Virus record (IMG/VR): IMGVR_UViG_3300031998_000052
Location: 1 to 64,000 of that record
Origin: a virus
Lineage: Duplodnaviria > Caudoviricetes
Direction: 5' to 3' (one strand)
Length of the DNA stretch: 64,000 nt
How positions within the stretch are numbered: position 1 is the stretch's first letter; the number at the start of each line of letters is the position of its first letter. Made by a program: the position numbers and the translations under genes. This document shows positions 15,500 to 39,314 of this stretch, one piece after another. Below the pieces are notes generated by a model, which saw only the letters and a program-made list of their open reading frames with translations, made no database searches and had not been told where the DNA came from.

Positions 15500-18484
15500 G
15501 CTATGATAGAAAAGATCACCATTCAGACCAGCCCAAATGGTCGCTGCTTCTCCGTCAATGTGCGGAAGAATCGGAAATGGGACGAGACCCACGCCCAGTA
15601 TTCAAGGATTACGGACGCGCTCTATGCGAGTGGCCGTCTTCCAGGAACCGGCCAGGTGGCCACCGCTGCTTGGAACGCCTTCTACAAGACAATCACGGCC
15701 CTCAAACTCACCAAGAGGGGGCGTGGTGACACCTATTACAGACTTGTTCAAATAGAGCAGATATGATCAACACCATCACAACCATCCAAGAGATAACCCT
15801 GCAAGCCTACGACTTTGGTATCTATCGTAGGCTCCAGGACGAGAAAGACATGTCCCGTGACCAGATATTCAACCTTTTCGAGGAGTGGGGCAAGGAGTTC
15901 GAGAAGAAGCACGAAGGGTACGTGTGGAACGGAGACTACTACGACGAGATTGACACCTTCATCATGGCTAAAAATGACGCCCTATGAGACAGGAACTTCA
16001 AGAAAGGTTGAGAAAGCTGGAGCCTTACCTGCCTCTGAGCTGGGACTACAAGGACCTGCTCGACATCGCCCAGGAGCAGACCGGCATGGACCGGGATACG
16101 CTCAGGGATATGTACGGAAACTATTCATACGGCCAGTGGGCCAGGGTAATCAATTTCTGTTAGCCATGAAACGCGAAAAGATAGAACTCAATGTACCGTG
16201 GAAGGACTTTCTGTGGGTGCTGGACCGGAGGGATGAGATAGAGAAGGAGACGGAAGGTCTCCGGCATGACATCCCAGAGGAGCACAAGAAATGGGGTGAC
16301 CTGTGGGACGAGAGGCACGAGCTTGACGAGAGGATGGAGAAGATGCGCCCGCACGTTATCCCGGAGGTGGGCGCCACCGGCACGATCCACTGGTATTCCG
16401 ACAGCAGCAAGGCCAAGGTGACCCGTGTGATATCGCCCAAGAAGATTGAGGTCACGGCCTGCGGGCTGTACCACTGCACCAAGATCTATACGTTCCGGTC
16501 CAACGGACACTGGGTCCAGGAGGGCAGCACGAGCCGGGACTGGGCCACGCTCTTCTCATGGGGCCGTGGTTATGACCATTACGACGAATCCTATTAAAAT
16601 TCAACGCTATGAATATTATCGAAAAAATCAACGCCGCTCTTGACAAGCACTTCAAGAGCAACAAAGGTAACATCCAGGCTGATATTGCCTATCCCTGGTG
16701 TGATGATAAGATCCGGCTGGAGGCTCAGCGTCCGTCCAGGGTGGATGTGCGCCACATGTGCGTGTTCATCTTCCGACAGGAACCCTACGTCCAGATGATC
16801 ATCATGGACACCTGGATCTTCACACGCGAGACCATCAATCGTGCGGGAAACCGTTTCAAGGCGTAAGGCCATGGACTACAAGGAAAGATTCATCGCCCTC
16901 ATGAATGAAATGCACCGGGCCGGTATGGGCGGGTGCATCTCCATGGTCATCGGGGAAGGGCTTCGGGAGTGCGAGGCTTACAGTAAAGACCTCGCCCACT
17001 GGGTAAAACACAACATAGATCAACATTGCTAATCATGGAAAAAGTATATCTCATCGTTGACCAGGACGGCGCCACCGTCAACGTGTTCGCATCGCTCGGT
17101 CTGGCTATTGCCGACATCGAGCTTAACAAGGAGCGCATCGTAAAGGAAAACCACAACCCGGAATCCACCCTTACCAACTTCATGTGGGGTGGCCGGGATG
17201 GGAAGAAATACTCCCTGACCATTAAGGAGTGCCCCATCTGCACAGATCCGCACATGGATTACATGGATAAGCCCAGGGACGTCAACGCAAAACTGTAAGG
17301 CCATGGCACGCAGGGTTTACATAAAGGATATCAAGTGTGACCAGCCCGGGTTCATCCAGAAAGGCGGGCTTTTCTCCTTCGCGGACAGCATCATGGTTGG
17401 CCGCAATATCAACGGTATCCGCAGGGTTGCCTTCTACGAGTATGACAAGTTGTGGCAGGCCAAGTGGAAGGATGAGGAGGCTGACATCTCCGTCCGGTGC
17501 GAGACGGACAAGGAGTCCCTTATCTTTCCGGAGGAGGTCATCAAGAACTTCAAGTACCAGATGGAGCAGCACTTCCTCGACAAGGACATCAAGGTGCGGA
17601 CCGAGTGTTACGGTGACACCCAGTCAAGGTACAACATCGACTTTTACTTCTACAAGGAGGATGATGATGCGTGAGACATTCGTATTCCAGCACAAAAAGT
17701 ACGTCCTCAACGTAACCCGCGAGGACTTCAATAACCTGGTACGGATCCGGCAGGTCGGAGGCCACCATGTCTGGACGGTATCAGTGGAGGCGCCGCCCAA
17801 TACGTCCCGCTGGGACCTGGGTGATGCGGCTATTAGTGCGTACCACGATCAACTCGACCAGGTATGTATATCGTAATCTTCATTATCTGCGGATTGGCCT
17901 TCATCCCAGAGATATTTAACGAAAAAAGGTAAGGCTATGACAATGTTCAAAGTGACAGACAAGACCGGTAAATACCTGGTCAGCGCTTTCAGTGACAATG
18001 AGCAGGCGTGCTATGAAGACGTCCGCGATGTTGTCGGTGACGAACTTGCACAGAACGGAATTCCTCTTGCAATAGAGATTTCTTCCTGGGCATCCGTCGC
18101 GACTCTTGGAGAGGTCTATGAGACCGAAAAAGTAAAAGTTGAAGTGGTGGAGGTAGATTAGGCATGTTTTTTGTAGTTATGCTGCTGGCATATCTGGATG
18201 ACATGCTGGCCAGAAGAAAGTAATATGGGAAAGTACGTTTACAAGGTTTACAAAAGGAAGGACATTAAGTGTACCTGCCATGCCGAGGAGGTCAAGTGTT
18301 ACTCTCAGAAGCGCACGGCTGACAAGTTTATCGAGAGGCAGGATGATCCCGACATGTTCTACGTCACGCGGTTCGTAGTGTATCGCAAGAGTGACGGCAG
18401 TACCGGGTATTGCCTTCCTTTGACGTATCTCACAGTCAAGGTTCCCGACGTGTATGCGCACGGGGGCTGGTATTAGTATTTGCC

Positions 18485-19252
18485 ATGAAAAAGAGAAGAG
18501 TCGAAATAAAAACCATTGATGAGCGCAGGCCATACGTACTGTGGCGCCGCGTCTCGACGAAGGAGCAGGGTGACAGCGAATTGGGTCTGTCTGCCCAGAG
18601 CACCATCGCCAAGACGTTCATGGGCCGGGAGCCGGTAGCGACGTACACGGACGTGAGGTCAGGTACGAAACTCAAGGAGTGCTCCGGCCTCTGGGACGCT
18701 ATCGCAGAGTGCAAGGAAAAGGACTACGTTCTGGTGGTGGCGAAGACGGACAGATGCCGTAACGTACAGGAGGCGCTGGATATCTTGGATGCAGTCGGGG
18801 ACCGCAGGCTGATATTCTGTGACCTTCCGTCCTGCGACCGCTTCATCCTCACGGTGATGTTCGCCATGTGGGAGCGCCAGGCTATCATGGGCAGGATCAA
18901 TACGAAGGTTGCCCTTGCAGAGCGCCAGCGCCAGATCAAGGAAGACGGCGGCTTCTTCTCTAAAAGCGGAAACTGGGTCACGCACCTTGGCCGGTCCAAG
19001 GGCTGCGACACCAGTAAGGCCACAGCCGCCGCAGGTGCGGTTGCAGCCGGTAAGTCTCAGGAGTGGAAAGATGATTCCGCTCTGTACTCCTGGGTCACTA
19101 TCCAGGTCCTCAAGCGCAGGCCGAGGAAGGAGATAGTGGCCGACGCCCGGGAACTCTACGAGAAAAACCCGGAGAAATATTGCACACGGAACGGGAGGCC
19201 GCTCACTGCGGCCATCCTCAGCCATTACATTAAAGACATTCAAAAATCATAG
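18485..19252 (+). CDS. serine recombinase (resolvase/invertase catalytic domain)
   Basis: YVLWRRVSTKEQ (catalytic Ser), DVRSG, LVVAKTDRCR. No large-serine-integrase zinc ribbon is evident. Confidence 0.85.
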   Translation: MKKRRVEIKTIDERRPYVLWRRVSTKEQGDSELGLSAQSTIAKTFMGREPVATYTDVRSGTKLKECSGLWDAIAECKEKDYVLVVAKTDRCRNVQEALDILDAVGDRRLIFCDLPSCDRFILTVMFAMWERQAIMGRINTKVALAERQRQIKEDGGFFSKSGNWVTHLGRSKGCDTSKATAAAGAVAAGKSQEWKDDSALYSWVTIQVLKRRPRKEIVADARELYEKNPEKYCTRNGRPLTAAILSHYIKDIQKS

Positions 19253-19257
19253 GAACC

Positions 19258-19803
19258 ATGAAAAAAGTTACAATCGAAATCCCTGAGGGAAAGGCATTGA
19301 AGTTCAAGGACGGCGCCTACGTCCTGGTAGATGACAACGTGATGGAGCGCATCAAGACCTTCGACGATGCGTGCCGCGAAGTGACCGGCAAGTCCGAGGA
19401 GGAGTGGCTGGCCGAGAATGAGACGGATAAGATGGAGCCGGACGTGCTGGCATACCTCAAGATGCGCATCATCGTTGCCGTCCTCAACGAAGGATGGAAA
19501 CCCACGTTCGAGGATGGTGAGACTCGGTACTACCCTTACTACTGGCACTACACCAAGTCCGAGTGGGAGGGCCTGAGCGCATCCAGGCGGAAGGAACTGG
19601 AGCCTACGGTCTGCCTCGTCGGCGGTAGCTCGTCTGACGGGTCGAAGTCGGGGCCGCTCTGCGTGAGCTCGCTCGACGCCTGGTCGGACGCGCGCTCGAG
19701 CCTCGGCGCCCGCCTTGCATTTAAGACGGGGGAACTCGCCCGTTATGCCGGGAAGCAGTTCTTCGACATCTTCAAGAAATTCTACTACGATGGAGTGCTT
19801 TGA
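19258..19803 (+). CDS. remote DGR target protein (181 aa) with a variable region near the C-terminus
   Basis: Encodes VCLVGGSSSDGSKSGPLCVSSLDAWSDARSSLGARLAF, collinear with the TR at 37743-37854. Confidence 0.85.
   Translation: MKKVTIEIPEGKALKFKDGAYVLVDDNVMERIKTFDDACREVTGKSEEEWLAENETDKMEPDVLAYLKMRIIVAVLNEGWKPTFEDGETRYYPYYWHYTKSEWEGLSASRRKELEPTVCLVGGSSSDGSKSGPLCVSSLDAWSDARSSLGARLAFKTGELARYAGKQFFDIFKKFYYDGVL
19608..19719 (+). repeat. DGR variable repeat VR2
   Basis: 112-nt ungapped match to the TR with 18 mismatches, 14 of them at TR adenines. All 12 mismatches in the 3' part are at TR adenines. Confidence 0.92.
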
Positions 19804-36892: not shown

Positions 36893-37459
36893 AAGTCTAT
36901 AAATTTGTACGTGAATTTTCCTCTTCCGAGATCGACGCGGGTGATGCCCACGTTTTCGACCGGAAACACTTTTTGACCGGCCTGCTCTGCCTTCCGGCAG
37001 TCATCCAGGATGTTCTTCATCTGGAACGAACTGATGGTGAACTTAATCTTCTCTCCGTCTTCCTTCTTCACCATGACCATGTACCGGTCGGTGTTCATCT
37101 TGGACGGGTCCCGCAGGTCCGGCGTTGGCACGTTGGCCTCAAAATCAAGGACCGTGAGGCGCTGGTTCAGCACCTCAAGGATGTTACCTTTCCGGCACTC
37201 AAAGAACTTCTTCCCGTCCTTTGAACTGGCCTTCTCGATAGATATTCCTTTCTCAGCGAATCCCATGATTGGTTGTCCTGTTATTGTTTTCCAGAGTTGG
37301 GCGCAGTCTCCATACATGCACAAGCCCCGGTAACTGTCAATAATTTCCTTTCCTCTTCGACCGCTTGGCCTTGCCGCCTTTCTGAGAGCGCTGGATGGCT
37401 AACCGCAAGTTATCCTCGTCCGCAACCTTCTCCAGGATATGCCCTACTTTTTTCGTCAT
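36889..37459 (-). pseudogene. DGR reverse transcriptase remnant: N-terminus joined to C-terminus, catalytic core deleted
   Basis: The ATG at 37459 gives MTKKVGHILEKVADEDNLRLAIQRSQKGGKAKRS (DGR-RT N-terminus), stopping at 37337. An overlapping frame gives KEIIDSYRGLCMYGDCAQLWKTITG (DGR-RT C-terminus) and continues without a stop into the 125-aa domain 36889-37266. No YxDD region lies in between. Confidence 0.8.
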
Positions 37460-37742
37460 ACAAAGATACGCATTTTTTTATTCCCTGCAATAGTGATACT
37501 GCCCGGGACGTTCGAGAGTGTCCATCGGGGTTCCACGCACGACGCTTACAACGCGCCGGTCAATGGGAACCACACGCTCGGACAAACCTACATTAGCCCC
37601 GCTCGCAGGCCCATACCTCCGGGCCGCTCTCCCGCATACGAGATGTTCTGACTCTCCGGCGCGACCTGCCGCCGGGGTCAAGGCTGAGGAGGTTCGCCGG
37701 CCGGTGTCTATCCGGCAAGGCGATGAAACAGGGTTTTCACTT

Positions 37743-37854
37743 TGTATGGCGGGCGCCGATGTTCGAGTTCGCGTTCGACCAGGCGTTGTTCGAGTTCACG
37801 TAGAGCGGCCCCGACTCCGACCCGATAATCGAGCCACCGCCGACGAGGCAGACC
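37743..37854 (-). repeat. DGR template repeat (TR)
   Basis: Lies outside any gene and is AAC-rich: GTC TGC CTC GTC GGC GGT GGC TCG ATT ATC GGG TCG GAG TCG GGG CCG CTC TAC GTG AAC TCG AAC AAC GCC TGG TCG AAC GCG AAC TCG AAC ATC GGC GCC CGC CAT ACA. Confidence 0.92.
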
Positions 37855-37997: not shown

Positions 37998-39314
37998 TTA
38001 CAGATCGGCCCCATCTACAATGGTCACTGGACCATAATATGCAGGGCGGGCGCCGAGGGCCGAGGCCGAGCCCAACCAGGAGTAGGTCGAGTTCACGCAG
38101 AGCGGCCCCGACTGCGACCCGTAATTCGAGCCGCCGCCGACAAGGCAGACCTGGCCTGTGGCGTTGCCATAGAAGTAGTCAGACCAGGACTTGTTGCTGT
38201 CGCCACCCGTCACGGAAGTGGCAATCATGTCGAAGTATTCACCCTTGGTCATGACCTTGACATATCCCGAGGTGGTCAGGCGAGTCAGTTCGCGTAACTC
38301 ACCGTCCGGATGGGAGGCAAGTTCGGAGGAAGAAGGAAGGCGGTTGCCCTTGTAGATATACACCTCGTCACCGTCCTGCCCGGAGTTGCCGCTGTTACCG
38401 AAGAAGATACCCTGGACAAACTCCCACTGGAGGTTCCACCAGTCCTCGATACCCAGAACAGAGACGTGCGTGGAATCGGCGTTGGCACCAGATGCGATGG
38501 CCACCGTACCGGAGGCATCACCCAGGTCCTTCGTCAGACCGGTAGTCTTGAGGACGGTCGATGCGTTCACGGTATCCCAGGAGAGACCGGAGGCACCACC
38601 TACGCCCTGACCGAGGCTGGCCTGTGCGTTTGCGTTACCCTGGGCCTCAGACAGGCACATAATCTCGAACCAGCGCAGGCAGTCGTAGTCCTTGAGGCCC
38701 CAGTTGGCACCGAAGGACTGGGCTGCGCTGAAATAGTCGCTGATGGTCTTGGACGAGGTGTCGAAGGTGACACCGGAACGGGACACCAGTTTTCCGCTGG
38801 CCAGGGAGCCTTTGTAGGCGCCGATGACCATCCGCTTTCCATTGTCCGCGTTCGCGAGATAGTGGCCGGAGATGGGGAACTCTGAGCACCACAGGTACGG
38901 GATGCTCGTCTCGGCGTCCGTCACCACCAGGTAGTACAGACGGGGAGCGATGACAACCACGGAACCCCTGGTCTCGTCCAGGGTCGTACCGTCGGCGAAG
39001 ACACCGGAGTTGTTCTTGTGCAGTTTGGCCGCACGACCGTTGGCATCCATCAGATACCGGCCCACCTTTGCCTTGTAGGAGTTGTAAGCCGCGATGTTGC
39101 CGATCATGCCCCAGGCGGGGCTGGTCTGCGTTGCGTCCTTGAGAGGGAATCCCCACGCTACCTGGTGGAGAAGTTCCGCCTGGCCTTCGTTCATGGCCGT
39201 CTCGAAGTCCTCCATCGAGATTCGGCGGATGGACCCGCCGATCTCGACGATGAGGCTGTTCGATTTCAGCATGGACGAAACAGACGTTGCTGTTGCTAAA
39301 TTCTTGTTTGCCAT
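37998..39314 (-). CDS. DGR target 1: tail-associated protein with a C-terminal C-type-lectin-like variable domain
   Basis: IGAYKG, GIEDWWNLQWEFVQG and terminal VCLVGGGSNYGSQSGPLCVNSTYSWLGSASALGARPAY; sits in the tail gene block. Confidence 0.88.
   Translation of the reverse strand: MANKNLATATSVSSMLKSNSLIVEIGGSIRRISMEDFETAMNEGQAELLHQVAWGFPLKDATQTSPAWGMIGNIAAYNSYKAKVGRYLMDANGRAAKLHKNNSGVFADGTTLDETRGSVVVIAPRLYYLVVTDAETSIPYLWCSEFPISGHYLANADNGKRMVIGAYKGSLASGKLVSRSGVTFDTSSKTISDYFSAAQSFGANWGLKDYDCLRWFEIMCLSEAQGNANAQASLGQGVGGASGLSWDTVNASTVLKTTGLTKDLGDASGTVAIASGANADSTHVSVLGIEDWWNLQWEFVQGIFFGNSGNSGQDGDEVYIYKGNRLPSSSELASHPDGELRELTRLTTSGYVKVMTKGEYFDMIATSVTGGDSNKSWSDYFYGNATGQVCLVGGGSNYGSQSGPLCVNSTYSWLGSASALGARPAYYGPVTIVDGADL
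38040..38151 (-). repeat. DGR variable repeat VR1
   Basis: 112-nt ungapped match to the TR with 21 mismatches, 13 of them at TR adenines. Confidence 0.9.

Follow-up and report, generated by a model that had tools for sequence, protein, structure and literature searches.

A decayed diversity-generating retroelement of a rumen phage with an adenine-specific, variable-repeat-like patch in its template repeat

The window analysed here, by which the whole 64,000 nt stretch of DNA under study is meant, comprises bases 1–64000 of a 76.6 kb IMG/VR phage record (IMGVR_UViG_3300031998_000052), which belongs to a rumen phage and is estimated to be complete. Repeat searches revealed three copies of a stretch of ~111 nt in the window, which make up a diversity-generating retroelement (DGR) with a template repeat (TR) and two variable repeats (VR1 and VR2). 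The TR core of 111 nt, reading GTC TGC ... CAT ACA on the minus strand, was located at 37743–37853 from the repeat families and alignments. As shown by alignment in the coding orientation, the TR copy is A-rich, with AAC codons, in its 3' two-thirds, and VR1 (38040–38150, minus strand) and VR2 (19609–19719, plus strand) differ from it at those adenines, with 12 of the 18 3' adenines changed in each. VR1 lies at the 3' end of target gene 1 (37998–39314, minus strand; 438 aa in the ORF list), which lies downstream of the tail genes, and VR2 is contained in the distal target gene 2 on the opposite strand (19258–19803, plus strand; 181 aa). The target gene 1 family has 105 homologues with diversified C-termini, the last ~35 residues being hypervariable, and a Pfam search of both target proteins gave no match. 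A serine-recombinase or DNA-invertase-like gene (18410–19252, plus strand; Pfam Resolvase, PHROG 125) lies upstream of target gene 2, its end being 6 nt ahead of that gene's start, and elsewhere in the window a 44 nt unit is found in perfect tandem duplication at 1547–1634.

On the 3' side of both VRs lie a GC-rich block and a stem-loop. The distance from the end of VR1 to the stop codon is 45 nt; the GGCGCCCGCC block is followed, 10 nt downstream, by a 6 bp stem with a 4 nt loop. This hairpin, ATGGTC-CAGT-GACCAT at 38020–38035 on the minus strand, is a putative stem-loop of the target-recognition type, and VR2 has a comparable stem. The 3' side of the TR is different: it is followed by a GC-rich spacer (37460–37742, minus strand) that extends from the TR to the start of the reverse transcriptase (RT) gene and is conserved in relatives, as seen against L002, and only a weak AT-rich stem is present at the place that corresponds to the VR1 hairpin. 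Within this spacer, positions 37619–37725 (minus strand) gave a full-length match to the Rfam RT-3 RNA that is sub-threshold (16.2 bits, E = 0.61, below the gathering score).

Next to the TR, where a DGR carries its RT gene, only a remnant is found in the window: a 40 aa ORF at 37337–37459 on the minus strand, with its ATG at 37459. Alignment with L002 showed that ~874 nt of the RT gene is absent, with the deletion junction at 37358/37357. The intact RTs of the relatives (L002:2438–3316, minus strand; L001:5217–6110, plus strand) are short ORFs of 292–297 aa with no match to Pfam RVT_1 and with NCDD instead of YxDD, and in L002 the conserved motifs appear, by eye and in this one relative, not to share the frame of the ORF start. 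A PF00078 search of the whole 76.6 kb record gave no RT match, which is uninformative since this model also misses the RT ORFs of L001 and L002, and a scan for the YxDD motif was negative and likewise uninformative, since the intact family RT has an NCDD box. The evidence for the loss of the RT is therefore the alignment with L002. On this evidence the element in the window is a decayed member of the DGRs and not a non-member, and it is to all appearances dead in cis, or frozen, because of the lost RT sequence.

The original prediction concerned the 5' third of the TR, which it described as adenine-mutagenised, with four codons that differ among the three copies. Re-alignment on the coding (minus) strand reproduced these codons exactly: at TR codons 7, 9, 10 and 13, the TR reads GGC/ATT/ATC/GAG, VR1 reads GGC/AAT/TAC/CAG and VR2 reads AGC/TCT/GAC/AAG. 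It had also proposed an ancestral AAC/AAT/AAC/AAG, from which the present TR codons are obtained by five substitutions, in order A>G, A>G, A>T, A>T and A>G. The altered letters are at core positions 19, 20, 26, 29 and 37, corresponding to window positions 37835, 37834, 37828, 37825 and 37817, all within 37812–37854, and they delimit a patch at 37817–37835 (minus strand) that is defined by the TRs of relatives and by statistics. At four sites A is found in at least one VR where the TR has G or T, an inversion of the usual DGR polarity to which the original prediction had pointed. In its 3' two-thirds the TR is intact, again in line with the prediction, with 18 of 18 adenines kept there.

The ancestral state was examined using seven TRs of relatives, obtained by pattern scans of IMG/VR and JGI metagenomes and by a protein-guided scan, so that eight TRs including that of the window were compared. 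The proposed AAC/AAT/AAC/AAG is found exactly in the TRs of L002, L012 and L009. In L001 the four codons read AAC/GAT/AAC/AAG, with A kept at all five patch sites, and in the distant L016, L018 and L019, from a second clade with target proteins that are 66% identical to those of the first, they read AAC/AAT/AAC/AAC. Thus, A is present at all five sites in seven of the seven TRs, and none of them carries GGC/ATT/ATC/GAG, an outcome in favour of the original prediction. Two Logan contigs from two other studies that cover the patch (X4 and X5) also have the ancestral letters at 37817, 37825, 37828, 37834 and 37835 in the TR slot. A search for TR-encoded peptides among longer proteins returned only P0001 and one VR2 protein; P0001 is a distant TR translation that reads N-S-N-N at the patch codons. 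An RT-based search of viral contigs and a pattern scan for the second clade found only contigs that were already known, and a distant blastn search of the TR and spacer against a GenBank phage collection gave no match.

The VRs of the window point in the same direction. Set against the inferred ancestral TR, VR2 has no mismatch at a non-A position; set against the present TR it has four, which all fall within the patch, and the state of the window TR is for this reason taken as derived. VR1 has eight non-A mismatches to the window TR and five to the inferred ancestral TR. These five lie outside the 5' third (CTT, GGC, TCC, TTG and TCG), so that the clean pattern in which mismatches are confined to the 5' third applies to VR2 only. 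They are unique to the window genome and three of them are non-synonymous; the window VR1 protein reads S-W-L-G-S, where 57 sibling alleles, with a single exception, have A-W-S-x-A/S. Outside this part, the window target protein 1 is ~98% identical to its siblings. Import of VR1 together with its upstream segment from another lineage was considered and is ruled out by the ~98% identity of the cluster-1 siblings there, and because of this identity the five extra non-A changes are regarded as specific to the window. They may reflect evolution of the binding site by point mutation after the death of the DGR, a putative reading.

The patch is absent from both VRs of the window, and changes at A only do not lead from the present TR to either of them. 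In the relatives, by comparison, six VR–TR pairs were available, each with no non-A mismatches, and in these 3–4 of 6–7 5' adenines and 10–14 of 18 3' adenines are changed. The non-A markers of the relatives' TRs (codon 3 as CTC, CTG or CTT; GCT and TCG in L002; GAT in L001) are present in their own VRs along the whole repeat. Since these pairs are free of non-A mismatches and the TR markers are copied over the whole length, full-length homing is the norm in this family and the window is the exception. The central rule of DGRs is a one-way flow of sequence from an invariant template to variable copies. The window departs from this rule, in that its TR has five derived changes at A sites and its VRs keep the older state.

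Relative to the inferred ancestor, the window TR is changed at five of seven adenines in a 19 nt stretch, at none of the 18 adenines 3' of it and at none of the 86 non-A positions. The probability that all five changes would fall on A, which makes up 25 of the 111 positions, is 6e-4, and the hypergeometric probability that five changed adenines would all be among the seven most 5' is 4e-4 (21/53130). The density of change is VR-like, with five of seven adenines altered in the patch compared with the 3–4 of 6–7 given above for the 5' parts of relatives' VRs, and the patch letters (G, G, T, T and G) can be set beside the A>N spectrum of these VRs (G 37, T 29 and C 24). The patch sits between the two longest blocks of TR/VR identity, at core positions 1–18 and 38–52. 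As far as can be read from its letters, the window TR is a mosaic with a VR-like 5' third and a pristine remainder, and the description of its 5' third as adenine-mutagenised is upheld.

These figures bear directly on one alternative, namely that ordinary point mutations accumulated in a TR that was neutral after the loss of the RT, or that selection fixed the four codons. The deletion of the RT would indeed have left the TR unconstrained, and the five window-specific non-A substitutions in VR1 show that point mutation has acted at the locus. However, a process of this kind would have to place five of five changes at A within 19 nt, sparing all 86 non-A positions and the 18 3' adenines, with a probability of about 4e-4 to 6e-4 for each aspect, and two of the five changes are A>T transversions. 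The nearest relative seen, the X5 contig, shows six other differences in ~440 nt of TR and flank, from which only ~0.3 changes would be expected in the patch. Selection meets the further difficulty that a TR has no phenotype of its own once the RT has gone. We therefore consider drift or selection extremely unlikely as the source of the patch.

A second alternative is that the 5' third was recombined in from an unsampled lineage in which the TR normally reads GGC/ATT/ATC/GAG. These phages are mosaic, and the identity of the window to its relatives varies from 74% to 100% along the target gene; several related DGR phages are also present in the same samples. Against such an import stand the adenines at all five sites in seven of seven sampled TRs, from two clades with target proteins of only 66% identity, the position of the TR adenines among the best conserved letters between the clades and the lack of any linked non-A differences in or beside the patch. 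An import would moreover merely move the same A-specific event into another lineage. It thus appears unlikely to a high degree, if slightly less so than point mutation.

The third alternative is an artefact of assembly or population, by which a VR variant present in the population was built into the TR slot of the contig. The record is a metagenome assembly, populations of this family are hypervariable in their VRs, and the same sample contains several related contigs of TR/VR-like sequence (X1 records 2–7). An independent Logan assembly at k = 31 of the probable source sample, however, contains a contig of 1028 nt at depth 30 that takes in the TR flank, the TR, the spacer and VR1 and is free of differences from the window; the TR and its flanks are reproduced over 491 nt. 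The two graph switches needed for a chimera would require shared 30-mers, and the longest exact TR/VR matches in the window genome are 15 and 20 nt, which makes a de Bruijn-graph chimera at k = 31 unlikely. In addition, the patch starts 18 nt past the TR-specific 5' flank, so that single 31-mers must join this flank to the first changed letters. The patch is known from one genome in two assemblies, probably of one sample, which lends the artefact some room, and the comparison is one between assemblies; on balance an artefact is judged very improbable. In the same rumen samples several other contigs have a nearly identical TR/VR 3' part with different flanks, from which it follows that several related DGR phages co-occur, and co-infection or action in trans is conceivable from these sequences.

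As a further check, the original prediction suggested a search for TR differences confined to ancestral A sites, and such a restriction was not borne out: the other seven TRs differ at four A positions and seven non-A positions, with no significant A bias. The change in the window TR is accordingly best described, from these alignments, as a single lineage-specific burst and not as the general mode of TR change. Between the two clades the TR adenines are almost perfectly conserved, whereas more than a dozen differences are counted at non-A positions. Because of this conservation it is apparent that loss of adenines from TRs is normally selected against, and the survival of the patch in the window would fit a dead element. 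Single-codon losses of adenine do occur in relatives: AAT>GAT in L001 (TR at L001:4891–5001), AAC>ATC in L016 (L016:2999–3109) and AAC>GTC, a double change, in L019 (L019:2997–3107). In each case the new letter is also found in the phage's own VR or VRs, which is suggestive of elements that stayed active, or exchanged sequence with a VR, after the change in the TR.

With respect to mechanism, the original prediction named two routes, integration of mutagenised cDNA back into the TR or recombination of the TR with a VR, and this general proposal is supported by the location of all five changes at A, by their VR-like density and by the ancestral letters in the TRs of relatives. In all likelihood, adenine-mutagenised DNA made by an RT replaced the 5' third of the TR by homology-driven recombination, the donor being either cDNA or a sibling genome's copy of a VR. 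The diversified sequence would have been made by the element's own RT or by that of a co-infecting relative, and it would then have entered the TR DNA by homology-driven recombination and not by canonical IMH-directed homing, because such homing would be expected to rewrite the 3' part first. The 5' end of a VR is recognized by homology only, whereas the 3' end requires the GC block, the IMH and the stem-loop (PMC5703328). Canonical IMH-directed self-homing into the TR is rejected as an unlikely route, as the 3' part would have been rewritten and yet 0/18 adenines are changed there. A point against this reading is that the RT needed to produce mutagenised DNA is now absent, so that any order of events is a presumed one.

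Two donors are compatible with homology-driven replacement of the 5' third. The donor may quite possibly have been the mutagenised cDNA itself: its 3' end, which corresponds to the 5' end of the TR, would integrate by homology alone, only this half of the reaction would be possible at the TR, and repair would leave a patch in the 5' third. It could equally have been a VR allele of a co-infecting sibling genome, a possibility to which we attach much the same, rather tentative, weight, in which case a short-tract gene conversion from VR to TR would have taken place between the two identical blocks. Conversion in cis from the present VR1 or VR2 is ruled out, as neither of them matches the patch or could have arisen from the present TR through changes confined to A. 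Where recombineering serves to integrate DGR cDNA, both TR self-mutagenesis and RT-independent TR/VR recombination were observed (bioRxiv 10.1101/2025.03.24.644984).

A search for a donor among 104 natural VR alleles (58 of VR1 and 46 of VR2) found none with the patch (G-S-I-I-G-S-E) and none with an unmutated 3' part. Exact-pattern scans of viral and genome contig collections yielded no second copy of the patch, an exact scan of the genome contig collection for the naive 3' part of the TR found nothing, and a PHROG scan of ten early ORFs found no single-strand annealing protein. In a sibling of the same clade, the target protein P0120 (412 aa, from a Logan contig of 3101 nt) terminates in ...GARHTK*, the translation of the TR's 3' flank with every adenine unmutated. 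Because P0120 ends with the TR's own flank, it implies, at the level of this contig, a DNA-level crossover between VR1 and the TR with deletion of the ~297 nt between them, which would represent another route of DGR decay and speaks for TR/VR recombination within this clade.

One contig comparison would speak for exchange in a further phage. The X5 contig (34,117 nt, from another study and a nearly identical phage) appears in this comparison with the ancestral TR but with the window TR core, over 107 nt, in its VR1 slot. This conflicts with P0111, the only family protein on record from a Logan contig of that length, which has an ordinary diversified VR1. The word share of X5, 0.51, fits better with the absence of the TR core from the VR1 slot, and one difference that should have been listed (T>A at 37826, in the VR1 piece of X1) is missing from the comparison that gave the X5 row. 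If the identity in the VR1 slot were true, DNA-level exchange between the TR and VR1 slots would be proven and the route from VR to TR would be favoured; in view of the conflict with P0111 and the lack of an unmutated 3' part in the 104 VR alleles, this row was set aside as evidence.

Focusing on known systems, there is a close likeness to the DGR of Quimbyvirus ('Quimbyviridae'; Benler et al., 2021, Microbiome 9:78, PMC8008677), a Bacteroidales gut phage of ~75 kb, and this likeness is one of architecture only. Both elements have one TR and two VRs, one at the C-terminus of a post-tail gene and the other in a small gene that lies at a distance on the opposite strand. The Quimbyvirus RT is short, atypical and read in more than one frame (PMC8008677), to which the L002 motifs, apparently out of the frame of the ORF start, may correspond. 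Two targets with the second distal and on the opposite strand are present in the window, and the change of frame in the RT was seen, by eye, in L002 only. Unlike Quimbyvirus, the window has lost the RT core and its TR carries an A-specific patch; non-A positions were reported as nearly perfectly conserved in the Quimbyvirus paper, and a change in the TR is not described there (PMC8008677). The DGR of the Bordetella phage BPP-1 (Naorem et al., 2017, PMC5703328; Guo et al., 2011, PMC3240598) shares with the window the A-to-N differences between TR and VR, a GC-rich 3' block common to both, a stem-loop after the VR and a 5' boundary that is set by homology only. In BPP-1, however, the TR is protected by IMH* and is invariant, whereas the window TR has VR-type changes at its 5' end only, which is the opposite of the outcome of IMH-anchored homing.

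A parallel to the proposed mechanism is DGRec (bioRxiv 10.1101/2025.03.24.644984), in which A-mutagenised cDNA made by the RT overwrites the TR locus when integration is driven by homology through RecT recombineering. The A-specificity expected of such self-mutagenesis is seen, as judged from its letters, in the window TR. DGRec is engineered in Escherichia coli, where an annealing protein has been added and mismatch repair switched off, whereas the window would be a natural phage case, with a tract of 19 nt and no annealing protein among the ten ORFs scanned. In the survey of Wu et al. (2018; PMC5758913), 23% of DGRs have non-A mismatches between TR and VR, which were attributed to misincorporation by the RT, errors of integration or independent mutations, and the window would score as such an element. 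The difference is that for the four patch mismatches the outgroup TRs show that it is the TR that changed, at former adenines.

In conclusion, the system described here is of a known kind, namely a Quimbyvirus-like DGR that has lost its RT; the state in which it is found, in one genome, is not one that is described for natural elements in the literature searched. Non-A mismatches now separate the VRs from the TR, and four codons can no longer be fully randomized; the predicted permanent reduction of diversifiable positions is moot in this element, in which ~874 nt of the RT gene has been lost. A natural template with a VR-like, adenine-only patch, polarized by seven outgroup TRs, indicates that the one-way rule can break in the wild. 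The broader reading, that DGR templates are not truly invariant in nature and that their own adenines are rewritten at low frequency by their own cDNA or by back-copying from a VR, is a speculative one and perhaps doubtful as yet, and the single-codon losses of adenine in L001, L016 and L019 may hint at recurrence in the family. If it is true, DGR-type mutagenesis also drives the evolution of the TR itself, and many non-A-to-N mismatches reported by surveys would go back to it. If it is general, some of the non-A TR/VR mismatches that lack an explanation, present in about a quarter of DGRs, would have a concrete origin, DGRs would have a way to lose or adjust their range of diversification, and the homology-driven half of cDNA integration would predict changes in the TR that are biased to its 5' end. 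DGR-calling tools that demand A-only mismatches would mis-score such elements.
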